61,180 nt of DNA from a virus. Both the position numbers and the translations under genes were made by a program. How positions within the stretch are numbered: position 1 is the first letter of the stretch; the number at the start of each line of letters is the position of its first letter. Positions 1 through 38,654 of this stretch are shown here, one piece after another. The notes beneath the pieces are model-generated. The model saw only the letters and a list, made by a program, of their open reading frames with translations, was not told the origin of the DNA and did no database searches. The DNA is taken from IMG/VR virus record IMGVR_UViG_3300023099_000001, positions 1-61,180 of that record. One strand, given 5' to 3'.

Positions 1-127
1 GAAGTGACCCTGCGCATCCTTGTAACCAAAGATGTCGCTCTTCGAAGTCTGAGAACCGACAGAAATTGCGTAGAAGTCAAGCCCCAACGCAGTAGCCGCA
101 TCCTCAGCGCCCTTAGTCTTACCAGTA
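1..127. repeat. 127-nt exact terminal overlap with 61054-61180 (circular assembly signature)
   Basis: First 127 nt (gaagtgaccctgcgc...cttaccagta) are identical to the last 127 nt of the window. Confidence 0.95.
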
Positions 128-609
128 CCGGCAGGACCAACCATGAATACAGGCAGCCGAGAGCCGATGATACGCAGCAACAGTTCAAACTTGTTGTGCT
201 GCACCCCGGACAGAGCAATCGTGTTGTTTTCTGTGCGGACCTCAATGGGCCGCACCTGCGTTGCAAGGGCAGTCAAATCTGCTGTAAGCTTCTCAGCCTC
301 AGCGCGCACTGCTGCGCTGTCAGACTTGACTGTCTTTTGAATGCCAGCAAGTGCAGACTTCATTTCCTTGTCGAAAGTTTCCGCTTCCGAACGCAGGCCA
401 TCACTGATGGTCTGAATCAGAACAGGCTTCAGTTCGGCTGTTACAGACTTCAGCACAGGTTCGGTAAGAACCTTCACAATTTCGTCAGTAACGTCAATCT
501 GCCCGTCCTTACCTTTGGTGAGGGTGGCAATGGGGGCTTTCTTAGCAGCTTCCTGCTGTCCCAGCAGTTGACGCATCTGCTCAATGCTGGGGGCTGTTTT
601 ATCAGTCAT
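1..609 (-). CDS. AAA+ ATPase (MoxR/CobS-like), N-terminal part; the gene wraps the contig ends and continues as 60415-61180
   Basis: Open minus frame from ATG at 609 runs off position 1. It reads ...LPVFMVGPAGTGKTKGAEDAATALGLDFYAISVG (Walker A) and continues into ORF 60415-61140 through the 127-nt overlap. Confidence 0.85.
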   Translation of the reverse strand, partial: MTDKTAPSIEQMRQLLGQQEAAKKAPIATLTKGKDGQIDVTDEIVKVLTEPVLKSVTAELKPVLIQTISDGLRSEAETFDKEMKSALAGIQKTVKSDSAAVRAEAEKLTADLTALATQVRPIEVRTENNTIALSGVQHNKFELLLRIIGSRLPVFMVGPAGTGKTKGAEDAATALGLDFYAISVGSQTSKSDIFGYKDAQGHF

Positions 610-964
610 TTTTTGTCAGTAGTCCTTCTACATAGGTGAGGTCGATATGTTCTGAGCTTACAGATGGGTGATACGTTTCGTCAACCATATCTTTTTCAAG
701 CTCTGGGTAACGTGTAACACGATATCGTGGTGTGATAGGAAGGTCAAGCATTTCTTCGATCATTTGAAGACTCTGCTCAAGTTCCCAAGCGTTCTGCCAG
801 AAATTTTCTGCCACCTTACCGGGGCGGTAGTCCCACACAGAAACTTCAAACCACTGATCGTGTTCCTGATCGAACAGTTCGAACTTGGACACGTTACCGC
901 GTGTGTGGTGCATTTCAACATAAAACTCTGGAAGTGTAACTTCCGTTACTGTTTCGTTTGACAT
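602..964 (-). CDS. hypothetical protein (120 aa)
   Basis: ORF track; start/stop packed against neighbours; no motif recognised. Confidence 0.6.
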   Translation of the reverse strand: MSNETVTEVTLPEFYVEMHHTRGNVSKFELFDQEHDQWFEVSVWDYRPGKVAENFWQNAWELEQSLQMIEEMLDLPITPRYRVTRYPELEKDMVDETYHPSVSSEHIDLTYVEGLLTKND

Positions 965-971
965 TTATTTT

Positions 972-1301
972 TCAGCCCTTTTCCCACTTGTTGTAATCGT
1001 TGCCGTAAGTTTTTGGACTGATTTGAACACCTGCGGCCAGCATGATAGACATGAGCGCAGTAATAGTGTCCTCATCAGTTAGATCAATGTTACGAATAGC
1101 TTCCTGAAGCTCTTTCGTACCCTTGTCCTGATTTGCCACATTTTTTTCAATGATGGCCTGCATAACAAAATGCACAGGTCGGATTAGACCCACTATTTTA
1201 CGCAACGCGCCTTCAGTGCCGGGAGGCGCTTTCTTCAAGTAATCTTCGTTACCGGAATCACCGCTGATCGATCCGCCGTTGGGCGGGAAGAAGCTATTCA
1301 T
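972..1301 (-). CDS. hypothetical protein (109 aa)
   Basis: ORF track; overlaps the next gene by 4 nt. Confidence 0.6.
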   Translation of the reverse strand: MNSFFPPNGGSISGDSGNEDYLKKAPPGTEGALRKIVGLIRPVHFVMQAIIEKNVANQDKGTKELQEAIRNIDLTDEDTITALMSIMLAAGVQISPKTYGNDYNKWEKG

Positions 1302-1654
1302 GCTTTATCTCCTGAAATGTCTTTGTCAGTGTCGTTTTCAAACGGATCAATACCGTCAGCAGGAATCTCACCGATAGCGAACATGGTTTCCCAGAGGGTC
1401 ATGTGTCGAGGTGCTTGATAGTAGACACCGTGATCGTGTTCCGAATCGCAGCTGGACAGCAGGCGTGTCAGTTCAATGCGAGTGTCTTCATCCACCTGAA
1501 TCCAACCAGACTCAAAACGGAAAGTGTCTGCGGCGACATAATCACCGGCAGCAAAATCTACCATAGCGTGCTTCTGGCTGAGCTTCACCATTTGGATTAG
1601 CTCAACAGACTTGTCACTCTTGGTGTCAGCGAGGGTTTTAGTAATTTCGTACAT
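1298..1654 (-). CDS. hypothetical protein (118 aa)
   Basis: ORF track; operon packing. Confidence 0.6.
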   Translation of the reverse strand: MYEITKTLADTKSDKSVELIQMVKLSQKHAMVDFAAGDYVAADTFRFESGWIQVDEDTRIELTRLLSSCDSEHDHGVYYQAPRHMTLWETMFAIGEIPADGIDPFENDTDKDISGDKA

Positions 1655-1656
1655 GT

Positions 1657-2202
1657 TTAGGACACTACTGCTTTCTCTGTCGGTGTGTCAAGAGCTACGA
1701 AGTAATTAATTATTTCGAAAAGTTCACAAGCAATTTTGCGGGTAAGCAGAATGTACTGCCCATTATCGGCAGCAAGGTTACTTGTAATTTTAAAGCCAGC
1801 TTCTGCATCGTTACCGTGAATAACTGTCACTTTGACAGCAGTGTAACCGTTTGGTCCCTGCTCAGACTCCACGCCAGCAATAACCCAGTGTAGAGCAATG
1901 TGAAACAAAGCCAACCGTTTGCGGGGCACAGCGAGGTCCATGATCTGGATAGTCTCAGCAGACACTTTCAGGATGCCTTCTTGCAGCAACGGTGTAACGT
2001 ACTGTGCCGCAATCTCTTTGGCGGGCGCGTGCATCATTGTCTTACAAAAGTCAGCGTTAGCTTGCTCTACAGCTTCGTCGTAGGTGTGCCATTCGATTAC
2101 TGCCGCCTCTTCCTCTTCGGGAGTTGCGAACGTGCTGGCTGGCTTGTACTCGGTGTCAGTCACTTGTATAGCTCCACAATCAAAATAATAGCTGAGATAC
2201 AA
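1657..2202 (-). CDS. hypothetical protein (up to 181 aa; start uncertain, TTG at 2202 or GTG at 2163)
   Basis: ORF track. The listed start is TTG. A GTG with a GGAGC motif 8 nt upstream lies at 2163. Confidence 0.55.
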   Translation of the reverse strand: MYLSYYFDCGAIQVTDTEYKPASTFATPEEEEAAVIEWHTYDEAVEQANADFCKTMMHAPAKEIAAQYVTPLLQEGILKVSAETIQIMDLAVPRKRLALFHIALHWVIAGVESEQGPNGYTAVKVTVIHGNDAEAGFKITSNLAADNGQYILLTRKIACELFEIINYFVALDTPTEKAVVS

Positions 2203-2254
2203 CCAGCTACAGCAAACAAACCAGCAATAAATAGTAGCTTTTCTTCAAGTGTTT

Positions 2255-2530
2255 TCAACGGTCGCTGCCTTGCGTGCGGTTCTCGCGGGGCTTGGCTGCC
2301 TGCTCAGCTTCGAACTCAGCGCGCGGCACCAGCTTATAGAAACTGTACGTCGTACCGTCAGGCTCAATTGTCATGTGCAAGTCAGTATTCGTGTCGGCCT
2401 GAAAACGTTGAATCCAAGTATTCCACAGCGGAGTACCTTTGATGCAGGTTTCTTCGATCTTCACCGCAAACGGATACTCAGGGTTACGTGCGAGCTTCCG
2501 CTTGAAATCATCAAGAGTCATTGCAAACAT
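2255..2530 (-). CDS. hypothetical protein (91 aa)
   Basis: ORF track; abuts the next gene. Confidence 0.6.
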   Translation of the reverse strand: MFAMTLDDFKRKLARNPEYPFAVKIEETCIKGTPLWNTWIQRFQADTNTDLHMTIEPDGTTYSFYKLVPRAEFEAEQAAKPRENRTQGSDR

Positions 2531-2722
2531 TTAATTTTCTCCATAAGTTGCATAGTATTCGAGTGCTGTAGCTAAATCTAGCGCTTCCTGCTTCGAAAGT
2601 CTAGAGCTAATAGTTATGTCTCTTTCAATAGCTGTGACACTTAAAACCAAAGGACCGGGAGAGCTTCGTGATCCTATAACGTGCACAGTTCGCGCCAGAT
2701 CAGTAGTTAGTTCAAAAGACAT
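2531..2722 (-). CDS. small protein, C-terminal D-L-x-x-A-L-x-Y-Y helix family
   Basis: 63 aa ending ...QEALDLATALEYYATYGEN; member of the tandem paralog set. Confidence 0.65.
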   Translation of the reverse strand: MSFELTTDLARTVHVIGSRSSPGPLVLSVTAIERDITISSRLSKQEALDLATALEYYATYGEN

Positions 2723-2961
2723 CAGGCGTGCCCCCTCGCATAAAATTGTAACGCAACTGCCAAATCTTCTGCCTCTTCGGCGGTAAGAAAAATCGCTGTA
2801 CCTTTAGTGGGTACGCTGTTCAGTTGAATAGACACAATAACGTCATTTAATTCTGAAATCTGTGTTGGGCGACTGCTAAGCACGGTAATGGTGCGTCTAC
2901 TACCACTAGTCTCCGGCCTAATATAACCCGTTGGCTTTGTAATTACAAATTTGCTCATCAA
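2722..2961 (-). CDS. small protein, C-terminal D-L-x-x-A-L-x-Y-Y helix family
   Basis: 79 aa ending ...AEEAEDLAVALQFYARGHA. Confidence 0.65.
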   Translation of the reverse strand: MMSKFVITKPTGYIRPETSGSRRTITVLSSRPTQISELNDVIVSIQLNSVPTKGTAIFLTAEEAEDLAVALQFYARGHA

Positions 2962-3293
2962 CTATTCCGCGTGGTTTTGTAATACGAAAGCACAGTAATC
3001 AGATCATCAATATCAGAGTCCGTCAGGTCAATCTGAGCTACCGCCTGCTGTGTGGCTGAGGTAACAGAAATAAGCGGCTCAGAAAGGCCAACATAAATAG
3101 AGGTCGGGTAAATCCGTAACTGAAACTCTCCGCGAGCGAACTTGTAATCAGTTCCGCCGCCTACCAGACCGTCAAAGGGTCCTAGCCTCTTTACTGCCGG
3201 AACGTAAGGTCGGTTTGAGTTCGCGGCTGTCGTCGTGTACACAGACTCTTGCAACTTAGCAGCTTGAAGCCAGTCATACTTACTCATTTTCAA
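2958..3293 (-). CDS. small protein, C-terminal D-L-x-x-A-L-x-Y-Y helix family
   Basis: 111 aa ending ...DSDIDDLITVLSYYKTTRNS; shares a 35-nt identical stretch with 58670-58704. Confidence 0.65.
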   Translation of the reverse strand: MKMSKYDWLQAAKLQESVYTTTAANSNRPYVPAVKRLGPFDGLVGGGTDYKFARGEFQLRIYPTSIYVGLSEPLISVTSATQQAVAQIDLTDSDIDDLITVLSYYKTTRNS

Positions 3294-3519
3294 GAGCCTT
3301 CACAAGATTTTGAAAGAACGGATCGGACATATCCCACACTACAGGGTAGTGTACGTTTCCGCTAGGGTCTTTATGGCACTGGTAAAGTTCGTCATCAACA
3401 GACACAATAAACCACCGCGACTCGTCAACACTACCCTGCCTCTGCTCCCAGATGCTCCATGTCCGAGTTTCTGCGGCCACGGGCGGGTCATCGGCCCGAT
3501 GCTTAGCCATGAAAACCAT
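3280..3519 (-). CDS. hypothetical protein (79 aa)
   Basis: ORF track. Confidence 0.55.
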   Translation of the reverse strand: MVFMAKHRADDPPVAAETRTWSIWEQRQGSVDESRWFIVSVDDELYQCHKDPSGNVHYPVVWDMSDPFFQNLVKALENE

Positions 3520-3820
3520 CGCGCATAATAGGCGTAGCAGTAGGCATTACCTTACCGTTAGCAATTTCTTCGCGCAGCTTAGCTGAAGTCTCGCGGACAC
3601 GAATAGTCTGCTTATCCATCACCCGCACATAGGCAGCCGTAGCCAAATCAGAATGACTAACAGCATCGATAGATAAACCCTGAATAACTCTCATGAATTC
3701 GTCAACAGCCACACGAGCGCTAGTAGCTTCCATGATAGCGCGGGAATGCTTCAACGCTGTGCTCACGCCCAAACGAATCTCACCGTATTGCTTAGCGATT
3801 TTATTTTTTGACTTAAACAT
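3503..3820 (-). CDS. hypothetical protein (105 aa; start moved to ATG 3820)
   Basis: Internal ATG (MFKSKNK...) lies 1 nt after the stop of the upstream gene at 3822. The longer ORF would overlap that gene by 80 nt. Confidence 0.55.
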   Translation of the reverse strand: MFKSKNKIAKQYGEIRLGVSTALKHSRAIMEATSARVAVDEFMRVIQGLSIDAVSHSDLATAAYVRVMDKQTIRVRETSAKLREEIANGKVMPTATPIMRDGFHG

Positions 3821-3821
3821 T

Positions 3822-4109
3822 TTATTCACCCGTCCACTGCTCGTATGTGCCGGGGTAACCCAGCAACACAATCTCACCTGACGCATCCTGACCAACCCCA
3901 ACAATAATTGCGGGGATAACCTGCTTCTCGTTCTCAGGATTCATAATCTCAATTGAGATTACAGTGTCACCGGGAATCTGCGCAAGAATGTTTGACAAAG
4001 CAGAAACCGTAATCTGAGTGCTTGACGTAGTGGTGTCCTCGCTGCCCCTATAGTTTCCCAACTGAGGGGTATCTTCGTGCTTTTCTTGTCCGTTAGGAAA
4101 CATAGACAT
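3822..4109 (-). CDS. hypothetical protein (95 aa; start moved to ATG 4109)
   Basis: ATG (MSMFPNG...) lies directly after the upstream stop at 4111. Confidence 0.55.
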   Translation of the reverse strand: MSMFPNGQEKHEDTPQLGNYRGSEDTTTSSTQITVSALSNILAQIPGDTVISIEIMNPENEKQVIPAIIVGVGQDASGEIVLLGYPGTYEQWTGE

Positions 4110-4110
4110 T

Positions 4111-4410
4111 TTAGTAATCTTCTCTCTGTGGGTCGTTGCCGTCGTACTGCTCGTACTGGTAATAGTAATCCATGGTCTGTAAATTACCGTTTCTATCTCT
4201 GATAAAACCATTTATACCGTGGATAAGAAAACCCGGAAATTTTTTAACAAACTGTAGCACAGCATCTGCAATGTCGGTTGCCGGAAAATTGCTTAACGTC
4301 ATTGACGTATTATCTGTCGGGTTGCGCGCAGAAATACTCCACACTGTCGGCGCAGTTTCCGTAGCTGCCGTAGCTGCCGTAGCTGCCGTAGAAGTCTCAG
4401 ATGCTGTCAT
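4111..4410 (-). CDS. hypothetical protein with (TAA)n repeat N-terminus (99 aa)
   Basis: ORF track; contains a 9-bp x3 tandem repeat (4361-4390) encoding TAATAATAAT. Confidence 0.55.
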   Translation of the reverse strand: MTASETSTAATAATAATETAPTVWSISARNPTDNTSMTLSNFPATDIADAVLQFVKKFPGFLIHGINGFIRDRNGNLQTMDYYYQYEQYDGNDPQREDY

Positions 4411-4607
4411 GAATTAAACACTACACCCTTGTAGTAAGTTAACGCAACAATCAAATCACTAACTTCCCGCTCATTCAGGATAATAGTATGACTTTCGTAC
4501 TTAGCCAACCAAGTAGTTTTAAGTCTTACTCCCTTGGAGTAGCTTTCGGCTTCTCCCACCTCTAAACTGAAAACAATTCTTTCATTAGTGCGCTCAATTT
4601 CTATCAT
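4407..4607 (-). CDS. small protein, C-terminal D-L-x-x-A-L-x-Y-Y helix family (66 aa; start at ATG 4607)
   Basis: MIEIERTNERIVF...EREVSDLIVALTYYKGVVFNS. Confidence 0.6.
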   Translation of the reverse strand: MIEIERTNERIVFSLEVGEAESYSKGVRLKTTWLAKYESHTIILNEREVSDLIVALTYYKGVVFNS

Positions 4608-4887
4608 CGCCTGCTTCCTTCTCAAGCTCACCGCGCACAAACTGCACTTGATCCAAAATTGCCAAAGCAAGCTCTTCAGCCTGTGCTACACTCATACCGA
4701 AAATGCCGTTAGTTCGTATAACACCAGAAAGTTCTACAAGAATTGGTGTCAGTCTTCCATCACGCATAGCCTCAAAATTATCGCCTGTCGGCCTGACTAC
4801 TTTAGAGAAATAAACATCGACTGCGGTATCTTGTGCCCACACAGTGACGACACGCCGTGAGTAAGCTTCCTCCCATGACGTAATCAT
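4594..4887 (-). CDS. hypothetical small protein (97 aa), distant member of the same family
   Basis: ...SVAQAEELALAILDQVQF...; same size class and position in the tandem array. Confidence 0.55.
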   Translation of the reverse strand: MITSWEEAYSRRVVTVWAQDTAVDVYFSKVVRPTGDNFEAMRDGRLTPILVELSGVIRTNGIFGMSVAQAEELALAILDQVQFVRGELEKEAGDDRN

Positions 4888-5144
4888 GGCTTAATCCTAC
4901 CCTCAGTCACCGCGATATGGTACTCCAAAACGGTAATATAATCTTTGACCTCTTGAACAGTCAAACCAATACTTGTTTTTACCTGTGTAAAACCGGGTGA
5001 GCCGGAGAGAAAATTTGCTCCTACCGTAGCCAACACAACAACTTCATTTATGCTACGAGGGCGGTTAGATTCTACCGTCAGTTCTACACCGTGCAGCCAA
5101 CGGGACTTAAGTGGAACAGCACTTTTAACATAGTTATCTGCCAC
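4884..5144 (-). CDS. small protein, C-terminal helix family
   Basis: 86 aa ending ...VQEVKDYITVLEYHIAVTEGRIKP. Confidence 0.6.
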   Translation of the reverse strand: MADNYVKSAVPLKSRWLHGVELTVESNRPRSINEVVVLATVGANFLSGSPGFTQVKTSIGLTVQEVKDYITVLEYHIAVTEGRIKP

Positions 5145-5373
5145 TATTCAACACCGTCCGGTAATATTCGAGCGCTGTAATAAAATCGTCAAGCTGTTTC
5201 CCGCGAATCAAAATTACGTGTCTGTTATCTTCGTTATCATAGTGAAACGTAACAGCAACATCGTTACCAGCCATTTCTTCAACGTCTAGCTCTAGCTTGA
5301 TATCAGTATTGTAGTTTTCTTCGTCGTTGTAATCAGACCTTGGCAGTTTAGTTTCAAGAATTCGATAACTCAC
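5134..5373 (-). CDS. small protein, C-terminal D-L-x-x-A-L-x-Y-Y helix family
   Basis: 79 aa (GTG start) ending ...GKQLDDFITALEYYRTVLNSGR. Confidence 0.6.
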   Translation of the reverse strand: MSYRILETKLPRSDYNDEENYNTDIKLELDVEEMAGNDVAVTFHYDNEDNRHVILIRGKQLDDFITALEYYRTVLNSGR

Positions 5374-5377
5374 CGGC

Positions 5378-5554
5378 TCACTCTCCGTTACTTATAGCCT
5401 GAGTGCGTTGAGCAAGGCGAGTGCGAGCGCGCCGCTTACGCCGATCAGCGTGAACACCACTAGCGCCAGAACGACGAAGCTCACGCATAGCCGCAATATA
5501 TCCCTCATTAGCGACCTTGTGCGGTCTGAATTTCGGCGGCTTCTGCTTCTTCAT
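5378..5554 (-). CDS. small basic protein (58 aa), below the ORF-track cutoff
   Basis: Hand translation MKKQKPPKFRPHKVANEGYIAAMRELRRSGASGVHADRRKRRARTRLAQRTQAISNGE. Its stop lies 4 nt before the next gene's GTG. Confidence 0.4.
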   Translation of the reverse strand: MKKQKPPKFRPHKVANEGYIAAMRELRRSGASGVHADRRKRRARTRLAQRTQAISNGE

Positions 5555-5660
5555 GGTCCAAGTCTACAAGTTCTTCATGGTCCAAGTCTACAAGCAAATC
5601 AGGCTGGTGTACAGCATAGTAAGCGTAAATTTCTTCGGGTGTCGGATGATTCTTTGACAT
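5490..5660 (-). CDS. small acidic protein (56 aa) containing a duplicated LVDLDHEE unit
   Basis: Hand translation MSKNHPTPEEIYAYYAVHQPDLLVDLDHEELVDLDHEEAEAAEIQTAQGR; spans the 24-bp tandem duplication at 5547-5594. Confidence 0.35.
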
Positions 5661-5667
5661 GATTTAA

Positions 5668-5973
5668 TCAATCTTTCAGGGCTTCAATAACGTCGGCACA
5701 ATCTATCAGATACTGTGCCAATTTGCGTGCCTCAGGAGCACTAAGCAGAAAATTTCTAGTCATGGCGGTAAAGAAAATGTCACTACCTTGAGCCGATATT
5801 GACGGAAGTCTATCAACAGTAGACGCATTTATAATCACCATACCTACGGTTTCTTCTGACGTTCTATTGCCTTCGTTATCAAATCCTACTATCTGCTTAT
5901 ACCCGTTTAAGTCCTCAAATGCGTGCTCGAAAATTTCTAGCTCGTCTGGCGTGTAATCTTTTCTAGCCATCAA
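5668..5973 (-). CDS. hypothetical protein (101 aa), possibly a distant family member
   Basis: ORF track; ends ...APEARKLAQYLIDCADVIEALKD. Confidence 0.55.
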   Translation of the reverse strand: MMARKDYTPDELEIFEHAFEDLNGYKQIVGFDNEGNRTSEETVGMVIINASTVDRLPSISAQGSDIFFTAMTRNFLLSAPEARKLAQYLIDCADVIEALKD

Positions 5974-6197
5974 AACTCCCCTCTTCTGGCAGAACGCTCT
6001 TCATGAGTTTTAACACGCTTCTTGATTGCGCGCGCAATAAGCCTAGCACCATTACGAACCGATCCGCTAACGCTACGATCAAACTTCTTCTCGATCTTCC
6101 GAACGTGCTCATCACGCCATCCAGTAGCACCGTGATATCCGCCGATTGTCGCCTTCACACGACGAGTTATTTTCCTTTGTCCTGCGTTTGAATCCAT
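5970..6197 (-). CDS. small basic protein (75 aa)
   Basis: ORF track; 4-nt overlap with the downstream gene. Confidence 0.55.
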   Translation of the reverse strand: MDSNAGQRKITRRVKATIGGYHGATGWRDEHVRKIEKKFDRSVSGSVRNGARLIARAIKKRVKTHEERSARRGEF

Positions 6198-6397
6198 TAG
6201 TCCGAACCTCCCGAGTCACCGGAAGACACCGGTACACACCAATCTGCCGGAACAGAAACAGGGGACGGCCACTCAGCATCAACCTCTTTAATAATAATAC
6301 TCTGGCTCGTTGACTTGATTTTGACAATCTGGTAAACAGTACCGTCGCCGCCATCATATTTTGGGGCGGTAACTAAATCACCTACTGACAGTTTCAT
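6197..6397 (-). CDS. hypothetical protein (66 aa)
   Basis: ORF track; shares junction nucleotides with both neighbours. Confidence 0.55.
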   Translation of the reverse strand: MKLSVGDLVTAPKYDGGDGTVYQIVKIKSTSQSIIIKEVDAEWPSPVSVPADWCVPVSSGDSGGSD

Positions 6398-6789
6398 TAC
6401 GGACCTCTTCGAATTTCAGTAGCCCATTCGCGCGCATCACTGACGAAAGTATCTTGGTCCCAGATTACAGCAGACTTATTATCTGCTAAGGCATTCGCGT
6501 AGTCCTCTACAGCCTCGGCCTTGACCTCGCGCTCGTCGCGGATGATGCCTGCGGCAAGCAGTGTGTCAACATCCTCCTGACATGAGCCACAATACGGAGG
6601 CGCGCTTGCGCAGCTGCCGCAATACTGTTGGTTTGATATGAATTCCAGCAGTGCTTCACGGCTTACGGTCAGGCGTGACTCGCGGCCAGCCTCAAACCCT
6701 ATGCGCCGGTCCTCGACACGACCATAGTGGTCGTCAATTCCGTCCGGGAAGCGGGCAATCGCCTCGGGGCTATGCTGTGGCTCAGTCAT
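6397..6789 (-). CDS. hypothetical Cys-rich protein (130 aa)
   Basis: ORF track; contains CGSCASAPPYCGSCQ. Confidence 0.6.
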   Translation of the reverse strand: MTEPQHSPEAIARFPDGIDDHYGRVEDRRIGFEAGRESRLTVSREALLEFISNQQYCGSCASAPPYCGSCQEDVDTLLAAGIIRDEREVKAEAVEDYANALADNKSAVIWDQDTFVSDAREWATEIRRGP

Positions 6790-6974
6790 TTTGAATCCTT
6801 AGTGTCAACAACTCTTGCGGCGTTACCTATGCTATTCCAAATCTTCACTTTGTACTTAGCTGAAAATTTAAAGTGGTAACTGTCGCTATCAACAACCCAC
6901 CTACCCATATTGAAAAATTCAACCACATAACGTTTTTGTGGGGCTGGATAAGATTCATAAATAACTTTTGGCAT
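6786..6974 (-). CDS. hypothetical protein (62 aa)
   Basis: ORF track. Confidence 0.55.
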   Translation of the reverse strand: MPKVIYESYPAPQKRYVVEFFNMGRWVVDSDSYHFKFSAKYKVKIWNSIGNAARVVDTKDSK

Positions 6975-7289
6975 TTACTTGTCCTCAAGTTTATTCGGCG
7001 GGTAATCCCCCACCAACTGTGTTTTCACATATTCCAAATGTGAAACTTGCCCGTTATATTTACGGTACCGTGACAAACACAAATAAGCATAATCAGAAAT
7101 TGTTTCTGGTGTTGCTTTGTCGGCGTACATATTAGTTTGATACAGTGCCACGGTGTACTTAATCAACCCAAAAAACGTTTTACGGCGTTCCATCAGTCGA
7201 ACATGAATAAATGACACCCCCAACGGGTGTGATTCAGTAACCCGCCAAAATTGGTGAGCAGGTAATACAGGCAACGTGTTCTTAGACAT
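6975..7289 (-). CDS. hypothetical protein (104 aa)
   Basis: ORF track. Confidence 0.55.
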   Translation of the reverse strand: MSKNTLPVLPAHQFWRVTESHPLGVSFIHVRLMERRKTFFGLIKYTVALYQTNMYADKATPETISDYAYLCLSRYRKYNGQVSHLEYVKTQLVGDYPPNKLEDK

Positions 7290-7575
7290 GCGTTAGCTCT
7301 TTCTCTTTACGCTTGATTTCCTGATAGCGGAACGCCTTAGCAACATCAAGATACAAATTGCTGAGCGGCAAGTCAAGCGCTTGGCTTATATTCGCAATCA
7401 CAGTACTACTCGGCTCTTTAATGCCCCGCTCAATCTCGCTCAGAAAACTCAGGCTGATATGGGATTTAGCCGACAGGTCACGTAAGGTCAAGTCCTGCTG
7501 TGTGCGGTACTGCTTGAGCGTACTACCCAACGCATACGCGGTTGACAATTCGTATTCAAGTGCGCGGTTTGTCAT
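7282..7575 (-). CDS. XRE-family helix-turn-helix transcriptional regulator (97 aa; start at ATG 7575)
   Basis: LKQYRTQQDLTLRDLSAKSHISLSFLSEIERGIKEPS is a classic Cro/CI-type HTH. The ATG overlaps the upstream stop (TGATG). Confidence 0.8.
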   Translation of the reverse strand: MTNRALEYELSTAYALGSTLKQYRTQQDLTLRDLSAKSHISLSFLSEIERGIKEPSSTVIANISQALDLPLSNLYLDVAKAFRYQEIKRKEKELTHV

Positions 7576-7874
7576 CAGATTAGTACAACCTTCCAGCAAT
7601 CTTCTGAATTTCTTTTGCAATCTGCGCAAATCACTTCATCCCACTTGTCTAGGTAATCATTGTAACGCTGCTGGCACCAAAAGCGTGTAATATTATCGCA
7701 TCCTGTTGCTTTTGCTACTGCGTGAGTAGTGCAGTCGTGCTCTTGCCTAGAATTACAGACCAAATTATCATGCTGGCTGTGCAGAATCTTCACAAACTCT
7801 TCGATATCCTGCTCAGAAATCGGTGACGCGACTGTTGGCGCTGATTCAGTATTCATGAGATACCCCCATTCCAT
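7575..7874 (-). CDS. hypothetical Cys-rich protein (99 aa)
   Basis: ORF track. Confidence 0.55.
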   Translation of the reverse strand: MEWGYLMNTESAPTVASPISEQDIEEFVKILHSQHDNLVCNSRQEHDCTTHAVAKATGCDNITRFWCQQRYNDYLDKWDEVICADCKRNSEDCWKVVLI

Positions 7875-8335
7875 GCTGCAAGTTCAGCCAGCCACTGGTC
7901 CGATTCGCGCAGCATTTGAGACAGGGCACGAGATACGAAGTAGAACTCGCCCCGCATGTTGACGAAGTTTTTCAACTCGTAGAGCACCGCCTCGCGCGGG
8001 GTCTTGCCGAATATTGCTGGACTCTTGCCCTCGGCGGCGCGGTGCATGTTGAGCGAGAGCGTCATGATGTGGTCCTGCATGTGGAAGCTGAACGCGTCCA
8101 TCACTGCCCGATACGCGGCGCTTTCGCGCTTCATATCAGCCTCGATGTGAGGGATGGATTTCGCAGCCTCAAAGTGCGCGTCGATGAGGTTCCAGCGCCC
8201 CGGCACGAACGTCACATCCATGCCGTATAGCTCGTTAGTGAACGAGAGCATTTCTCGGTATTCTACTTTGATGCCGGGATACCAGCGCAGTGTTGAATGA
8301 ATCACGGCTGCATTAGATGTGGGTGGATAGCTCAT
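7853..8335 (-). CDS. hypothetical protein (160 aa)
   Basis: ORF track. Confidence 0.6.
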   Translation of the reverse strand: MSYPPTSNAAVIHSTLRWYPGIKVEYREMLSFTNELYGMDVTFVPGRWNLIDAHFEAAKSIPHIEADMKRESAAYRAVMDAFSFHMQDHIMTLSLNMHRAAEGKSPAIFGKTPREAVLYELKNFVNMRGEFYFVSRALSQMLRESDQWLAELAAWNGGIS

Positions 8336-8339
8336 AGCT

Positions 8340-8954
8340 TTACTCTAGCGTCTGCGGGGGCGCTTGTACAGCGTTTTTGTTAATATCTTCGATCAGATTA
8401 CGGTAAAACGAACGCTGCGCTTCTGACATATTCGGGTCAGAATACCAATCCTCCGGCATGCTCTCAGTGGTCATAACATTCCACTCGTTCAGTTTGTAAT
8501 GGTACTCATACTCAGCCTGTTCGCCATCCTCAAGCTTCGTAATCCACACCGAACGCTCTGCGCGGTCAAGACTGTACTCCCACCCCAACACCGTAGCTTC
8601 GTTTGACAATTCAGCGTCAATCTTCTCGATTGTTGCAATTTTCTTCTGCGCCAGTCCAGCCACCGGACGAATTCTTGTTGTCAGCCCGCGCTCTTTGCGC
8701 TTTTGCGGGTCAGTTTCAATGAGCGGCTTATCGTTGCGAATCAGGTAAACGAAATTTCTGGTATTACCGATAGCTTCCGCAACCTGACCCACGGTGTAGT
8801 GGTAGTCAGCTTGCACCTTAAAAATGGCGCGCTGCAACGCTTGACGTTGGGGCGCTAACTCGTCTTCAAGCTGTTGACGTTGACGAGCTTTAATAGCTTC
8901 TCTGGTTTCCCAGAACTCGTTGTACTTATCGCTCAAATCTTCTAAACTACTCAT
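8340..8954 (-). CDS. hypothetical protein (204 aa); first gene downstream of the AT-rich palindrome region
   Basis: ORF track; possible HTH around TVGQVAEAIGNTRNFVYLIRN. Confidence 0.6.
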   Translation of the reverse strand: MSSLEDLSDKYNEFWETREAIKARQRQQLEDELAPQRQALQRAIFKVQADYHYTVGQVAEAIGNTRNFVYLIRNDKPLIETDPQKRKERGLTTRIRPVAGLAQKKIATIEKIDAELSNEATVLGWEYSLDRAERSVWITKLEDGEQAEYEYHYKLNEWNVMTTESMPEDWYSDPNMSEAQRSFYRNLIEDINKNAVQAPPQTLE

Positions 8955-9378
8955 TTTTATCTCTTTCGTGTCATAAACTAATTGTTTTAGGACGTACCAA
9001 TTATTTTGTGCGTACTAAACAATATAATCCTTCTCCGCACCAGCATGCGGGAGTAGATTAATTAATCTAGTTTGTATAATTTTGTCAGTACGTAGTAGAT
9101 TAATTAGTTTAGTACACTTTTTTGGGTGTGTCAAGTCAAAATTGTGCGATTCCGGGTTGTTTTTTGCTGTTTTTGAGGTTCAAATTTGCGTTTTTCGCTT
9201 TTTCCTCTATGTGAATGTGTAAAAGAATAATATATATATATTATTCTTTTAGAGCGACACAAAGGGAGAAAACTTAAACTGACCGATCGGTCAGGAATTT
9301 TCTGGAAAAAGGCACAACAACACAACTAACACAAAAAAGACAACACTAGTTACTTTCAGAACCAACAACTCTGATTTG

Positions 9379-9588
9379 TCAAGCATCGTTGACTCCCAAC
9401 ATTTCGTAAACACCCTTAGCAAATTCATCTGCTGAAATAGTAATGCCATCTATTCTGACATTATGCACATTCCAGATATTAATAAGAACAACAGACTCGT
9501 CGTCCTGTTTTTCCAACATCAAAGTAATAGACTTAACTTTATGTTTGCTGATGATTTTCACACCAAAATCACGAATGTTATACAACAT
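9379..9588 (-). CDS. hypothetical small protein (69 aa; start at ATG 9588)
   Basis: MLYNIRDFGVKIISKH...; the longer ORF would overlap the upstream gene. Confidence 0.5.
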   Translation of the reverse strand: MLYNIRDFGVKIISKHKVKSITLMLEKQDDESVVLINIWNVHNVRIDGITISADEFAKGVYEMLGVNDA

Positions 9589-9838
9589 TTTTGAATGCCT
9601 TACTGTGATAGTAAACCTCGAAAGTGTTCCAGCAGATAGCTGACCACACATAACCAGACTTAGTTGGGGGAGAAACTAAATTTCTCAGATTAGCCTCAAG
9701 GCTTGCCTCAAGCAACGAATCAAATTTATGTGATTGCCCATTCTGAGAAAAAGAACTACTAACACCTAACGGTAACACAGCAGGAGTTTCGACAATACCA
9801 AAACGTAGCGGCCTGCCGTACTTATCAGTGTCAGGCAT
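9578..9838 (-). CDS. hypothetical protein (86 aa)
   Basis: ORF track. Confidence 0.5.
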   Translation of the reverse strand: MPDTDKYGRPLRFGIVETPAVLPLGVSSSFSQNGQSHKFDSLLEASLEANLRNLVSPPTKSGYVWSAICWNTFEVYYHSKAFKNVV

Positions 9839-10112
9839 TTTTCAAATCCTCAAGCGTGATATCAGTGACTAAACGGTCAACAGAGTGTACGAGCTCATAA
9901 GTACCATTAGTGCGAACAACAGCCACAAAACGATTGTGTGCCGTACCAGCAATCATTGTAACCGCTCCGGTAGCAGGCGGTGTATGCACATTCCACGACA
10001 GCTTAGGGTTAGCTGATTTAATAATGTCAACCTGAATTTGCTGACGGTTAGAAAACTGACCTGTACTGTTTCTGACTTTATGAAAATTACTGGTGTTATT
10101 AGGTTTAGCCAT
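9831..10112 (-). CDS. hypothetical protein (93 aa)
   Basis: ORF track. Confidence 0.55.
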   Translation of the reverse strand: MAKPNNTSNFHKVRNSTGQFSNRQQIQVDIIKSANPKLSWNVHTPPATGAVTMIAGTAHNRFVAVVRTNGTYELVHSVDRLVTDITLEDLKNA

Positions 10113-10115
10113 AAT

Positions 10116-10340
10116 TCAGGTACCCTGCCTTCCCACAAGCTGCTTTAAATATTCAGCATTAAATTCTTCAAGATCAACAATAATATTCACATAGCTATGG
10201 CCGTCTTCAAGCTCCACATACATCTGAGTAGCATTAAAAACCTTTATAGTCAACACATGAGTCACGTCAGTACCGCCGCCTGTGTGATCGAGTAGTTTAG
10301 AATCTTCGTTCAGAGGAACAAATTTTTCAGGCTTAGTCAT
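10116..10340 (-). CDS. hypothetical small protein (74 aa; start at ATG 10340)
   Basis: MTKPEKFVPLNEDS...; the ATG overlaps the upstream stop by 8 nt. Confidence 0.5.
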   Translation of the reverse strand: MTKPEKFVPLNEDSKLLDHTGGGTDVTHVLTIKVFNATQMYVELEDGHSYVNIIVDLEEFNAEYLKQLVGRQGT

Positions 10341-10572
10341 AACTACGTGACCCCACCCCTGAGCCGTTAACCCAACCAAGAGTGCGGATAAGCTCAAGAC
10401 TCTCAAGCTCTTTATCAGGAATTGGCAAATCCATGTCAACGTCGAAACGGCTGCGTTTAGGCCGAGCTATCAAACTCTTGTGCATATCATTCACACGCTG
10501 CCTAGCTGCCACCCTAGCCGCTGTAGGAGCATTTCTGGGCGTAGAGTACTTAGAAGTGGGAGCCTTAGCCAC
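10333..10572 (-). CDS. hypothetical basic protein (79 aa)
   Basis: ORF track. Confidence 0.5.
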   Translation of the reverse strand: MAKAPTSKYSTPRNAPTAARVAARQRVNDMHKSLIARPKRSRFDVDMDLPIPDKELESLELIRTLGWVNGSGVGSRSYD

Positions 10573-10756
10573 GATTCGTAACCTCTACAATTTCATCCCA
10601 ATCGCTGCGAGAAAGCAGAACAATGTACGGATGAGAATTACTACGTTTTACAGAAACCTGCACAAGCTCGTCCTGAGCTACAACAGTAACAGAATTGTGC
10701 GGCTGCACGTTGTCTGTCTTTGTAACTCTTGTGAAGGTTGCCACAGGATTTCTCAT
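10565..10756 (-). CDS. hypothetical small protein (63 aa)
   Basis: ORF track; first gene after the 626-nt noncoding region. Confidence 0.5.
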   Translation of the reverse strand: MRNPVATFTRVTKTDNVQPHNSVTVVAQDELVQVSVKRSNSHPYIVLLSRSDWDEIVEVTNRG

Positions 10757-11382
10757 TTCTTGATTAGGTAATTACAAAAACTTGCCCGTAGGATCATACA
10801 TGGGGAGCTTTAGGGACTTTTAGCTCTCTGCCTCCACGTTCCATTCCAGTGAGTCAATTTCATATCTAGAATTTAGTTGTTACCTGACTGCCCTCATTCA
10901 CTACGCCATAGCTACGTGACTTATTGGGAATTTAAGATTGGCTAAATGCCCTCTGCGAGTTTTCTAGGGTTTCAAGTTTCATTTAGCCAATCAGCACGAC
11001 TGACACTTACTCTAGGCAATGTTCGGGCATTCCTGTTTCACTGCCAGCCGCGCAGACTGTCTAACTAATATATTTTCTATGTCGCTACACCAGTCCGGTC
11101 GTTTCTGGAATTACAAGCAATTCACCGGAGTTTCTAAAATCACATATATTCAACCCTATAGGCGGGTAACCTGTCGCTTTTACATGATAGCTCCTGATTA
11201 GGTATTTTTCATTTCTGTGCTACAAGAGAAACACTACGGGGAGTCAAGGTGTCTTGTCTAGTGTTTCTTTATAACAGATTGGTAACGGAAGATAACAGCC
11301 TGCAAACCAGCCTGAGAACTTGATTTCGAAAAATCAACTCTAGGCGCTTTACGTGGGACAGGTACAAAGCTGGGGAGTGTGA
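10757..11382 (-). other. 626-nt noncoding, hairpin-dense region between two leftward gene blocks (candidate structured RNA or regulatory region)
   Basis: No credible ORF on either strand. Perfect 13-bp (10936-10948/10980-10992) and 10-bp (11227-11236/11259-11268) inverted repeats, plus several shorter ones. Confidence 0.5.
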
Positions 11383-11613
11383 TCATTTCGAAATCACATC
11401 CGTGCCCAGCCCGTTACCCTGCACGTCCGCATCCCAAAAGCAATTATCGCTATCTTCAGTGGGGCACGGAGTTTCGGCGGGTATAGAAATAGTGGGCAAT
11501 TGCTGGGGAACAAACTGCATTTCCTGAATCTTGTTACCCACAATTACGATGAGTGCAACTGCAACCAACACAATCATGCAGTCCATAGCTGTTTTCAAAA
11601 ACTTGGGAATCAT
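11383..11613 (-). CDS. small membrane protein (76 aa, one TM helix)
   Basis: MIPKFLKTAMDCMIVLVAVALIVIVGNKI... is a hydrophobic N-terminus. ATGA overlap with the upstream ORF. Confidence 0.6.
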   Translation of the reverse strand: MIPKFLKTAMDCMIVLVAVALIVIVGNKIQEMQFVPQQLPTISIPAETPCPTEDSDNCFWDADVQGNGLGTDVISK

Positions 11614-11735
11614 GCTGGGTTTCCTACTCTCTTAGTGTTGTGTGAAATCTTTTCGAAGCTGGGTAAGTTGTCCATGTCCACGTCAAGGGCGGCAAGGCAC
11701 GACAGGGCACGCTGTAGCTTTCCTGAAATTCTCAT
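11610..11735 (-). CDS. small ORF (41 aa)
   Basis: Hand translation MRISGKLQRALSCLAALDVDMDNLPSFEKISHNTKRVGNPA; ATGA-coupled to 11613. Confidence 0.4.
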   Translation of the reverse strand: MRISGKLQRALSCLAALDVDMDNLPSFEKISHNTKRVGNPA

Positions 11736-11736
11736 T

Positions 11737-11880
11737 TCAGTAATCCCCTAAAAAGTAATCCCCTAAAATAGGAGCTAGGACCAACATAACCGCCGTGAGA
11801 ACACTATCCACAGTGGGATTATCCGCTTCCATAGCCTTATCAATGGCTTCGCCAAGGTCGTATTTAAGCTCTTCCAGCAT
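11737..11880 (-). CDS. small ORF (47 aa) downstream of hammerhead C
   Basis: Hand translation MLEELKYDLGEAIDKAMEADNPTVDSVLTAVMLVLAPILGDYFLGDY; the ATG lies 20 nt after the ribozyme motif. Confidence 0.45.
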   Translation of the reverse strand: MLEELKYDLGEAIDKAMEADNPTVDSVLTAVMLVLAPILGDYFLGDY

Positions 11881-11899
11881 TTTGATAACTCACTCTCTA

Positions 11900-11963
11900 A
11901 GTCTCATCAGTGTGCCTATCTGACACAGACCTAGCCTAATTGAATTTAGGCTAGGTTTCGACT
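11900..11963 (-). ncRNA. hammerhead ribozyme motif C (type II permutation)
   Basis: Minus-strand RNA: A GUC GAAA CCUAGCCUAA-auucaa-UUAGGCUAGG UC UGUGUC-agaua-GGCACA CUGAUGA GAC U. All invariant core nucleotides and a GUC cleavage triplet are present. Confidence 0.75.
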
Positions 11964-11976
11964 AGTTGGATAGAGA

Positions 11977-12816
11977 TTAGATGCTGTACGCTTCCCCACA
12001 GTTATCGCACGTCATCGTGGACTTCTCGTACATGTCACGAGGAATCCGGTAAATCGTGTCACAAGGGCACGAGACAGTGACCGTAGCGCTACCGTAAGCC
12101 TTACGCGGTTTCGGCGTGAACGGAATGTTCAAGTCAATTCCTGTAGTACCGCCGTAAGGGTTAGTGCTGGAAATGCGCCGGTAAATCGTGATCGCTGACA
12201 TAAGATTCTCGATTTTGTCGGCATACAGGGCGCGTGCGCTATCAGTGATACCCGGCGTAACGTGACCGATGTTTTGGTTCACGTTCGTGTTGGGGTCACG
12301 CTCCACAACACAACCGAAAGATGCTGCGAGGTTCGCAAAACGCTTGTTGTGGTAACGCCCTGAACGGGACGTGTCCTGAATGCCTTTAGCGTGCGCGTAA
12401 GCATGCGCAGCTTCATGCAACAGCGTGGAAACAGTTTTGATAACCTGTCCACCGTTTGTGTTCCACTCGCCCACCATAGACAGCGTGGAAAGCATCAACT
12501 CGTGGTGCGCAGCACCTTCGTACCGGTTCGGCGCGAAATGCCCATGAGCCCGTGTGTCGGCCTGCAACACAATGTTGACAGGCGGGGTACCGGGGTGTGT
12601 GTGCTGAATTTCACGCCACAACTCATTGATAGCGTTCAGAATGGGCAGAGTCGGCGTGTCATGGCGCAGAAACACTGCCAGCGCCTTACCGGGCAGCGTG
12701 TCGTGGTCCCGGTCGGCAGGGTAGCTCTTCTCAATGTTGCTAGCCCGCGTCAGGCTAACCACCCCGTGATCGACGGCGGCAACCAACGGGGCGTAAGTGA
12801 CTTTACGTGTTGACAT
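11977..12816 (-). CDS. SprT-like zinc metalloprotease with C-terminal zinc ribbon (279 aa; start at ATG 12816)
   Basis: LLHEAAHAYAHAKGIQDTSRSGRYHNKRFANLA contains an HExxH motif. C-terminal CPCD...CDNCG. The listed upstream start at 12849 lies inside the ribozyme motif. Confidence 0.7.
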   Translation of the reverse strand: MSTRKVTYAPLVAAVDHGVVSLTRASNIEKSYPADRDHDTLPGKALAVFLRHDTPTLPILNAINELWREIQHTHPGTPPVNIVLQADTRAHGHFAPNRYEGAAHHELMLSTLSMVGEWNTNGGQVIKTVSTLLHEAAHAYAHAKGIQDTSRSGRYHNKRFANLAASFGCVVERDPNTNVNQNIGHVTPGITDSARALYADKIENLMSAITIYRRISSTNPYGGTTGIDLNIPFTPKPRKAYGSATVTVSCPCDTIYRIPRDMYEKSTMTCDNCGEAYSI

Positions 12817-12832
12817 TCTATTCTCTCTTTCA

Positions 12833-12887
12833 AGACTCATCAGGTGCACTATCTGTGCACGACACGCTGTGGGAGCGTGTTTCGTCT
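12833..12887 (-). ncRNA. hammerhead ribozyme motif A (type II permutation)
   Basis: Minus-strand RNA: A GAC GAAA CACGCU-cccac-AGCGUG UC GUGCAC-agaua-GUGCAC CUGAUGA GUC U. Confidence 0.75.
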
Positions 12888-12894
12888 AGGGGGG

Positions 12895-13098
12895 TTACTC
12901 CCAGTCTGCTAGTGCTCCTGTTACCTCGAATTGTTCGAACGCTGCGCACAATGCGTCGCTACGGTCCAACCGAGGCCAGTTGCCTACTCGTGATTCGAAT
13001 ACCGAACCGTCGGTGTCAGCAATCGTTAGCACCGTATAACTGGGACGGTCCCCGAATGCCGGACCTTGCTTACCTGTAACAACTGTTATGCGTTCCAT
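12895..13098 (-). CDS. hypothetical protein (67 aa); first ORF of the ribozyme-punctuated operon
   Basis: ORF track; the ATG lies 21 nt after hammerhead B. Confidence 0.55.
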   Translation of the reverse strand: MERITVVTGKQGPAFGDRPSYTVLTIADTDGSVFESRVGNWPRLDRSDALCAAFEQFEVTGALADWE

Positions 13099-13119
13099 TG
13101 CTCTGCCTTTCGTGTAGTG

Positions 13120-13169
13120 GACTCATCAGCACGGGGGTTATCCGTGGACCCGTATACGCGGGTTTCGTC
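13120..13169 (-). ncRNA. hammerhead ribozyme motif B (type II permutation)
   Basis: Minus-strand RNA: GAC GAAA CCCG-cguaua-CGGG UC CACGG-auaaccc-CCGUG CUGAUGA GUC. Confidence 0.7.
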
Positions 13170-14164
13170 GGGTGGCTAGTACTTCGCGGCCCTAGCTAGG
13201 CGTTCCCTGAGACCCTGCCACCGTTTCGACTCCTACTATCCATGCGGCCCGGTGGGGCTCATTGATATCAGTATAGCCGCATATAGGCAGAATTGACCTG
13301 CAAATATCAACGGATTTATAACATTGCAGACCGTGCAAGATTGTGAGTACATAGCCCCCTCCACTAGTGGATATGCGCCACCCTGTCAATACCCCCGTAT
13401 ATACGCGCGCGGGCGAGGAAAACTCAGTCTTTCGAGCAGGGGGGTGTATGTACTGGTGTATGAGTGAGTCAATGGAACAGTACAGAGACCAACACATTGA
13501 TATATGAGTGTCAATCAATAGCTAGGTGCGCTGACATATGAGAGTCAATGAGTCGTTGACATATACATGTAGCTAGAACATATGTACGAGACAGAACAGT
13601 CTGTCGCACTATTAGCACTCGCAGAGCAAGAGTGCCAAAAGGGGGGTTTAGTGGGGTAAAGAGAACCCCGGAATAGAGCGGCTGAAAGGGGCTGATTCGA
13701 TTCTACGGGGCGAACGGGGATGAGTTAGGGGTAGCGGATGGGTAAGGGGGGTCAAGGGCTTAGACGGGCGCACAGGGCCGCACGCTATGAACTAGCTGTA
13801 TGAACACTGATAGGTGTGAGTGTAGAACACATGTACTAAACAGGGTGAGGATGTGTCAAGTTAAGAGTATGTACTGGTGTATGTACTAGCGTGACATATA
13901 AATGTATACATGAAAGGGATTAGAGTTGAATGAACGCTGATAGATAGCTGTGAGCGGGCTATGAGAAGAGCAAGAGAAACAAATGAGAATAAATCATGTT
14001 CAATCGATGAAAGAAGATAATGAGAGAATGTCACGGCTGGGAGAGCGTGGTTGGGGGTGGTGTATGTATTTTTGTATTAAAAATTTCTAGTGTAGTTTCT
14101 CTTTTCCAAAAAATAATCGGAGAAAAAATTGCTATAGGACCCGTTCTAGTTGTAGACTGTCTAC
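13170..14164. promoter_or_regulatory. about 1-kb noncoding divergent control region (repeats, G-tract cluster); candidate promoters, ori or pac
   Basis: Lies between leftward and rightward gene blocks. Only an implausible Cys/His-rich ORF is present. Direct repeats and 11 G-runs. Confidence 0.5.
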
Positions 14165-14476
14165 ATGAAAGATAAAACGCTTGAAGAGGTAGTATTAGAT
14201 TCTGTACAATCTACGTTGAGTACAGCAACACCTGAACAAATTACTGATTTAATCCGGGCACCATACGAGGATTTGAAGGGCAATAAAATGGACGAGTTTG
14301 ATTACATGCAGGACGATGCGCTAATGAAATTTACAAAACAGTTTGAGCCAGAGCTTAGCGACCATTACACCGGTAATATCGCGGATTACACTTTCTTTAT
14401 TCAGGAAGAGTTTCTGCCCCGTTTCGAGCGCGCTGTGTGGGAGCTAACGCTGCAATCCAGACCTAGCCGCAGGTAG
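14165..14476 (+). CDS. hypothetical protein (103 aa)
   Basis: ORF track; first rightward gene. TTGCTA-18 nt-TAGACT lies 6 nt upstream of the ATG (possible leaderless start). Confidence 0.6.
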   Translation: MKDKTLEEVVLDSVQSTLSTATPEQITDLIRAPYEDLKGNKMDEFDYMQDDALMKFTKQFEPELSDHYTGNIADYTFFIQEEFLPRFERAVWELTLQSRPSRR

Positions 14477-38456: not shown

Positions 38457-38479
38457 CCAGCTTGAATAACTAAATACTT

Positions 38480-38552: not shown

Positions 38553-38557
38553 CGCAA

Positions 38558-38629: not shown

Positions 38630-38654
38630 CCACTTGACAACTTAATATCAACAA

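Follow-up and report, generated by a model that had tools for sequence, protein, structure and literature searches.

Hammerhead ribozymes arranged in tandem around single prophage genes were described in 2011 by Perreault et al. (PMC3088659). In the triple hammerhead around ardA of A. tumefaciens, and in the clusters of C. scindens and A. caulinodans, closely spaced copies on the same strand enclose one gene each, the flanked genes being small, accessory and of variable identity (PMC3088659). The tandem hammerheads of all three bacteria cleave in vitro, and those of A. tumefaciens also in vivo (PMC3088659). Similarly, three type II hammerheads found in a prophage context in D. vulgaris by cyPhyRNA-seq cleave in vivo and during in vitro transcription; they lie in prophage-like regions of the bacterial chromosome, beside phage-like genes, and two of them are approximately 300 nt apart (PMC8782182). 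The role proposed for such clusters is the processing of a polycistronic transcript into single-gene mRNAs (PMC3088659; PMC6765202), and the function of bacterial and phage hammerheads has been called ‘largely elusive’ (PMC6765202).

The window considered here (the whole stretch of DNA that was analysed, 61,180 nucleotides) represents a 61,194-bp metagenomic contig of an uncultured tailed phage without close cultured relative. Here too, same-strand hammerheads (three, where at least two make a cluster of the type described in PMC3088659) lie in intergenic gaps and bracket single phage genes. The gene-bracketing arrangement of phage hammerheads is thus already known, and this cluster is a further example of it. 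Its copies resemble the type II class (RF02276; PMC3088659) in strand order, stem II being the open helix and the other two being closed by loops, in their canonical core and GUC triplet, in their short stem II and in their phage context. However, the type II consensus and the Rfam model both include, after stem II, a pseudoknot of at least 4 bp between loop I and the 3′ tail, a feature of ‘a majority’ of type II hammerheads that is not obligatory (PMC3088659), whereas none of the three copies in the window has one. Two of them, moreover, differ from the consensus by a 5-nt AGAUA loop and by an unpaired U beside a 4-bp stem II. The cluster also departs from those of Perreault et al. in its genes, a 67-aa open reading frame (ORF) and a SprT-like gene, in its host, an uncultured tailed phage, and in being known from sequence alone.

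Three hammerheads at the head of a leftward operon

All ORFs from position 1 to 13100 lie on the minus strand. They are separated by a gene-free divergent region of approximately 1 kb (13100-14165) from a rightward terminase and portal module, whose genes identify the window as phage. The terminase is 42% identical to Arthrobacter phage terminases, and a comparison of the DNA of 11900-13600 with cultured phages returned no match. The three hammerheads, referred to as 1, A and 3 in their order on the transcript, bracket two genes at the head of this leftward operon. ORF67 (67 aa; 12895..13098, minus strand), which figures in the ORF list and was called as a gene, stands between hammerheads 1 and A. 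Two homologues of it were retrieved (58% and 54% identity), and no hammerhead was found nearby in their loci, L230 and L231. The SprT-like putative zinc metalloprotease gene (279 aa; 11977..12816, minus strand) stands between hammerheads A and 3. Its product matches the Pfam SprT-like family at E = 5e-4, below the cutoff, and phrog_6361 at E = 9e-17, has 209 homologues and displays a HEAAH motif and C-terminal Cys pairs; H134, E135, H138 and Cys250/252/270/273 are invariant in 17 relatives. PADLOC and the PDB provided no match to this protein. On these sequence features, it is a conserved early-region protein and a putative zinc metalloprotease. The first ORF downstream of the cluster (47 aa; 11737..11880, minus strand) was likewise taken from the ORF list and called as a gene; the remaining transcript, which contains it, would start at 11927 once hammerhead 3 has cut.

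Hammerhead A (12833..12887, minus strand) is the copy that the initial annotation had reported. The minus strand from 12888 to 12832 reads U-AGAC-GAAA-[CACGCU-cccac-AGCGUG]-UC-[GUGCAC-agaua-GUGCAC]-CUGAUGA-GUCU-U, that is, a stem II of 4 bp (AGAC/GUCU), a stem III of 7 bp with loop CCCAC and a stem I of 6 bp with loop AGAUA, set around a CUGAUGA/GAAA core. The pairs adjacent to the core are G10.1-C11.1, G1.1-C2.1 and A15.1-U16.1, and an unpaired U stands on either side of the motif, at 12888 and 12832. C17 falls at 12861 and N1.1 at 12860, so the cut is predicted at 12861|12860. The sequence given by the initial annotation matches the minus strand exactly; the order with stem II open agrees with both the sequence and the minimum free energy (MFE) fold, the core and its GUC cleavage triplet had been correctly assigned, and the same cleavage position had been derived. 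The motif had also been rightly placed in the 78-nt gap between the stop of ORF67 (12897-12895) and the ATG at 12816 of the SprT-like gene, 17 nt ahead of that ATG. The type II interpretation is accordingly supported; the entry had left out the arrangement of three in tandem, the subclass and the published precedent for the arrangement.

Folded in isolation (59 nt), hammerhead A adopts the exact three-way junction as its MFE structure at -19.4 kcal/mol, against -12.5 ± 2.9 kcal/mol for shuffled sequences (z = -2.4). In a 121-nt context the MFE fold is an alternative one, in which upstream coding RNA pairs with the 3′ strand of stem I (ensemble frequency 0.002, z = -1.5). The end of the ORF67 coding sequence (CAGGAGCACUAGC, 12900-12917, minus strand) can indeed pair with 12841-12853, which covers the 3′ strand of stem I and C3-G5. 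Such a predicted structure would block hammerhead A, and may have arisen by chance.

Hammerhead 1 (13120..13169, minus strand), the first on the transcript, was detected by a scanner that demands base pairing and by two covariance models. It has a stem II of 3 bp (GAC/GUC), a stem III of 5 bp with loop CGUAUA and a stem I of 5 bp with loop AUAACCC; C17 is 13147, the predicted cut is 13147|13146, and the motif ends 21 nt 5′ of the ORF67 ATG. Its MFE fold is the hammerhead junction, but z is only -0.5. With a 3-bp stem II, no recognisable tertiary contact and this z-score, it is the weakest of the three. Hammerhead 3 (11900..11963, minus strand), also of type II, was found by the same scanner and has a fold z-score of -4.7. 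Its stem II comprises 4 bp (AGUC/GACU), its stem III is an 11-bp CTAG-rich hairpin, and its stem I (6 bp) carries the same AGAUA loop as that of hammerhead A. C17 is 11928, the predicted cut is 11928|11927, and the ATG at 11880 follows after 19 nt; a U at 11964 and another at 11899 border the motif.

All three copies contain CUGAUGA, GAAA, A15.1-U16.1, C17 and the GUC triplet, with perfect stems beside the core, so that the conserved core (C3-A9, G12-A14, A15.1-U16.1, C17) is canonical in 3/3, and their MFE folds are the hammerhead three-helix junction. A sequence-only pattern, CGAAAC..GTC..CTGATGA, with free spacers and no demand for base pairing, matched three times in 61 kb (11904-11960, 12837-12884 and 13123-13167), always on the minus strand and within 1.3 kb, where 0.01 matches were expected and 0/100 shuffles reached three. 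The pairing-demanding scanner confirmed three complete type II hammerheads, each ending 17-21 nt ahead of the next ATG. Two further candidates were rejected: a possible fourth hammerhead at 49329-49370 (minus strand), which came from a loose scanner and has a 2-bp stem II and a score of 7.5 bits with model R1 (described below), and a second GUCGAAAC at approximately 13223-13230, a partial chance match without the corresponding 3′ half.

Two other features of the window may be mentioned. In the divergent region (13100-14165), a repeat of 14-17 nt (GGTGTATGTACTGGTGT and variants) occurs at 13443, 13864, 13876 and 14059, together with other short direct repeats; such elements could serve as operators, phage-specific promoters or an origin. 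A scan for sigma-70 promoters 5′ of hammerhead 1 detected nothing on the minus strand. Elsewhere, 25 tRNA genes are gathered within 3.3 kb (38386-41640, plus strand) and an isolated one lies at 50111-50184 (minus strand), a large complement for a 61-kb phage.

Taken as a whole, the evidence points to 12833-12887 on the minus strand as an active type II hammerhead, with one further copy on either side of it where a leftward, presumably early, operon begins; to this reading we assign a probability of approximately 0.85. For hammerhead A, the motif, the fold, the model scores, the covariation, the conservation in orthologues and the location in the gap from a stop codon to the next ribosome-binding site are directly supported, and the RNA is very probably a genuine self-cutting one.

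A compact subclass below the Rfam threshold

The Rfam model RF02276 (Hammerhead_II) has a gathering threshold of 37 bits, and all three copies in the window score under it. In a 601-nt search it gave 22.8 bits for hammerhead A (E = 0.034) and 18.6 bits for hammerhead 1. When 14.3 kb were searched, only hammerhead A was reported (E = 0.82), hammerhead 3 being absent from the results at E up to 1, and a search of 1-14300 for other ribozyme classes, also at E up to 1, returned none. Accordingly, a scan of the whole window at Rfam gathering thresholds yielded tRNAs only and no ribozyme. The low scores result from the lack of the pseudoknot, in place of which A and 3 have the AGAUA loop and the U-flanked 4-bp stem II, and the empty scan reflects low sensitivity for this subclass, not absence. 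Indeed, in nine phage loci (L103, L104, L106, L114, L129, L149, L098, L099 and L101), only 6 of the 33 hammerheads detected with a second model, R1, pass the RF02276 threshold. Since most compact phage type II hammerheads are missed in this way, annotation pipelines under-report them. The six copies that pass include three with an AGAUA loop, all in L103, at 37.3-40.3 bits, and the AGAUA subclass therefore belongs within the Rfam family.

Model R1 was built from 16 hammerheads, none of them from the window (15 from IMG/VR phage contigs and one from L011, a related phage). Run over the 61 kb with filters off, it scored hammerhead 3 at 64.8 bits (E = 1e-19), hammerhead A at 60.6 bits (E = 4e-18) and hammerhead 1 at 29.6 bits (E = 2e-7), the next-best match in the window reaching 11 bits (E = 0.39). 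The high scores of A and 3 are partly by design, because the IMG/VR seeds had been found with a pattern modelled on hammerhead A; hammerhead 1 lies outside the seed pattern, yet R1 detects it. Moreover, when the A-derived pattern was applied to IMG/VR without requiring pairing, all 15 matches folded as hammerheads, and the 16 copies from outside the window show compensatory changes in 10 of 14 pairs. The covariance-model check proposed in the initial annotation thus had a divided outcome: the curated Rfam model left hammerhead A (22.8 bits) short of 37 bits, which by itself would nearly have counted as a refutation, whereas R1 recovered it, and an orthologue in the related phage L007 reaches 39.8 bits with RF02276 itself. 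The sub-threshold Rfam scores are also what might be put forward for a chance resemblance to the hammerhead consensus. Against three clustered copies on one strand, an R1 E-value of 4e-18 and compensatory changes in orthologues, this explanation is effectively refuted.

To place the window copies among phage hammerheads, IMG/VR was scanned for the same stem I geometry with the loop left free, which gave at least 120 stretches. Among the matches listed, the retrieved loci contained 133 distinct foldable hammerheads, a sample unbiased as to loop. Stem II has exactly 4 bp in 122/133 of these listed type II hammerheads; the open 4-bp stem II, regarded as a weakness in the initial annotation, is on the contrary the norm. 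A Shine-Dalgarno-like purine-rich run and a start codon follow within 42 nt in 115/133 (median 21 nt), again among the matches listed. Copies may be numerous on a single contig, as R1 detects 12 in L129 (within approximately 5 kb), six in L114 and five in L149.

The 4-bp cases listed (loci L098-L189) fall into two forms. In the dominant form (119/122 among the matches listed), an A precedes stem II, usually with another A on its 3′ side, and loop I begins with U; in the minor form (3/122 among these same matches), stem II is flanked by U on both sides and loop I runs from A to A. The association of flank with loop is complete among these matches (3/3 versus 0/119, Fisher p = 3e-6). Most of the set that had been selected for an AGAUA loop is also of the minor form, to which hammerheads A and 3 and the L011 orthologue belong; hammerhead 1 and the hammerheads of L007 (of the pseudoknot type) and L016 represent other forms. 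When the three window copies were inspected by eye, no pseudoknot joining loop I to the 3′ tail was found: hammerheads A and 1 have no complement of loop I in the tail, and the tail of hammerhead 3 offers only a 4-nt UAUC approximately 13 nt away, probably by chance. The association between flank and loop suggests covariation over a tertiary contact made by loop I with the open end of stem II. This contact would replace the consensus pseudoknot, and the two forms may correspond to a swapped tertiary base pair within it.

Different ribozyme classes are known to co-occur, and one such case was met in this survey: in L098, a type-P5 twister ribozyme (1070-1124, plus strand; 44.8 bits, over its threshold) lies approximately 180 nt 3′ of a type II hammerhead (840-894).

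Gain and loss among related phages

Sixteen relatives of the SprT-like protein are 50-61% identical to it, and DNA was obtained for eight lineages. Gene order is conserved among them, with a divergent terminase module, a gap, small ORFs and the SprT-like gene. A type II hammerhead directly 5′ of the SprT-like gene is present in the window, L011, L007 (and its near-duplicate L008) and L016, the SprT-like proteins of the last three lineages being 52-61% identical to that of the window. No hammerhead was found 5′ of the SprT-like gene in L003, L009, L012 and L013, so the ribozyme is dispensable for this gene. The single SprT-like protein sequence gave no match in IMG/VR; an alignment query gave one locus, L017, which is of the same lineage as L013 and without hammerhead. 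A metagenome scan retrieved a single close relative, L018, which does not differ from L017 in the region compared, and 79 distant ones (approximately 30% identity), with a hammerhead in 0/80 of these loci. Conservation does not extend to the small flanked ORFs: ORF67, ORF47, ORF76 and ORF41 gave no tblastn matches in the relatives' neighbourhoods. These comparisons indicate that the ribozymes come and go on a short evolutionary scale and have no fixed association with particular genes, in agreement with what Perreault et al. noted (PMC3088659).

Where hammerheads are present, their stems differ between lineages and pairing is kept. Across the six copies available (three in the window and three orthologous), 98.8% of cells pair, a percentage inflated by the fact that the copies were partly selected for pairing; compensatory changes affect 9/14 pairs, and covariation extends to every one of the six pairs of stem I. 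Together the copies have a covariation score of 0.795, as against 0.21 ± 0.06 for shuffles and at most 0.14 for slid partners.

A long CTAG-rich hairpin stands just 3′ of the SprT-like stop in L003, L007, L009, L011, L012, L013 and L016 (in L011, ggggctaggctgataccagaattcaacctagcccc). The window has a similar hairpin at 11929-11956 (minus strand), which is stem III of hammerhead 3, as if the core of this ribozyme had assembled around a pre-existing post-gene hairpin. One might then regard the copies as decaying or inactive relics, or consider that only their hairpins are functional, as RNase III sites or stabilisers, with an incidental core. Such an explanation would account for the hairpin in close relatives, all of which have it at this place without a core, and for the lack of hammerheads in half of the close lineages. 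It is nonetheless improbable, as the eleven core bases are intact in all three copies, and remain so in orthologues with wholly different stems; relics would gather core mutations, and the chance expectation for the pattern is 0.01.

Probable transcript processing and a possible link to translation

Hammerhead chemistry is established, with cleavage occurring 3′ of C17. As the motif is canonical, cleavage is expected after 13147, 12861 and 11928. Beyond the motif itself, we infer cleavage, what becomes of its products and how expression is affected, as follows. During leftward transcription, the stem III and stem I hairpins would fold first, and the 4-bp stem II would close once its 3′ strand has been transcribed, allowing the core to catalyse the attack of the C17 2′-OH on the adjacent phosphate. 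Cuts at 13147|13146, 12861|12860 and 11928|11927 would then remove the 5′ leader and free two messages from the rest of the polycistronic RNA, namely a predicted ORF67 mRNA of 286 nt (13146..12861) and a predicted SprT-like mRNA of 933 nt (12860..11928). Because only the four pairs of stem II join the products, these would separate and the cut would be effectively irreversible.

When the predicted products were folded, the 3′ products started flush with the stem I hairpin, the 5′ products ended in the stem III hairpin plus one nucleotide, and the Shine-Dalgarno region and AUG were largely unstructured. Each message would thus begin with a 5′-OH at the stem I hairpin, with its own Shine-Dalgarno sequence and AUG approximately 17-25 nt further on, and would finish with a stem III hairpin and a one-nucleotide overhang bearing a 2′,3′-cyclic phosphate. 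Ends of this kind are poor substrates for the 5′-monophosphate-dependent RNase E, for RNase J and for 3′ exonucleases. The ribozymes could therefore act as natural insulators that give each cistron defined and stable ends whatever sequence adjoins it; from what is generally known of RNA decay, the hairpin-capped 5′-OH and 2′,3′-cyclic-phosphate ends would have an insulating or stabilising effect. The synthetic insulator RiboJ offers a parallel: its hammerhead, placed just 5′ of the ribosome-binding site, cuts away the variable RNA upstream and a hairpin stays at the new 5′ end, which makes expression independent of context. RiboJ was engineered, with a type III hammerhead of a satellite RNA as its source, whereas the insulator is here a working model for a natural phage element. 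The most likely role of the cluster, by analogy with what has been proposed for others of its kind, would be the processing of a polycistronic phage transcript into single-gene mRNAs.

The same cuts could also serve down-regulation or timing, active ribozymes uncoupling the first genes from the remaining operon, whereby the messages of these genes would be shorter-lived or less translated than uncut RNA. Cleavage does strip the RNA of its triphosphate 5′ end and of any leader, the identity of the flanked genes changes from phage to phage as it would for a generic dosage device (tblastn here; PMC3088659), and the presence or absence of hammerheads among close relatives would suit a tunable accessory role. 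However, the predicted products have hairpin-capped ends with almost no overhang, of a kind generally tied to protection, and the Shine-Dalgarno sequence and AUG stay accessible in the 3′ products. We therefore hold down-regulation to be a possible but unlikely role, although it cannot be separated from stabilisation by sequence.

Far less probable is a use of the ends for joining, by which the bracketed segments would be circularised, or their flanks spliced, through hammerhead ligation or a host RtcB-type ligase. The 5′-OH and 2′,3′-cyclic-phosphate ends have the substrate chemistry of RtcB, and pairing of GUC, from the 3′ half of hammerhead 1, with GAC, from the 5′ half of hammerhead A, could give a chimeric 3-bp stem II. 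On the SprT-like segment, by contrast, the corresponding chimeric helix, GUCU with AGUC, contains a U-U mismatch at 10.2/11.2, and nothing in the sequence specifically favours end-joining. Perreault et al., who raised the idea of circularisation, sought spliced or circular products and found none (PMC3088659).

The position of the motifs brings in a further relation, with translation. In hammerhead A, the U that precedes stem II makes a UAG with the first two bases of that stem (12886..12888, minus strand); it is in frame with ORF67 and follows the UAA of this ORF by 9 nt. Another UAG, at the 5′ edge of hammerhead 3 (11962..11964, minus strand), stands in the frame of the SprT-like gene and follows the UAA there by 15 nt. 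Both UAGs in the window are therefore in-frame second stops. The frame was then examined for 20 hammerheads of the minor, U/U form (L011, L098-L109, L126, L165 and L170), 19 of which follow an ORF of 40 codons or more. In 15 of these 19 the UAG shares the frame of that ORF (binomial p = 6e-5 against one third), and in 10/19 it is the ORF's own stop. At the other end, the 3′ strand of stem II abuts the ribosome-binding site of the next gene; with the stop overlap, the ribozyme thus fills the whole space from stop codon to next ribosome-binding site. As the UAG takes in two bases of stem II, a ribosome terminating on the upstream gene would need to melt this stem and the base of stem III. It is conceivable, if rather doubtful, that cleavage, and hence the uncoupling and fate of the downstream cistron, is gated by translation of the upstream gene and not constitutive.

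The window adds one well-supported hammerhead cluster to the thousands known. The overlap with stop codons and the association of loop with flank are leads on the coupling of ribozymes to translation and on the tertiary contact of type II hammerheads without pseudoknot. Finally, the related phages with a hammerhead (the window, L011, L007 and L016) and those without (L003, L009, L012 and L013) form a natural comparison set, which bears on the purpose of hammerheads in phages.
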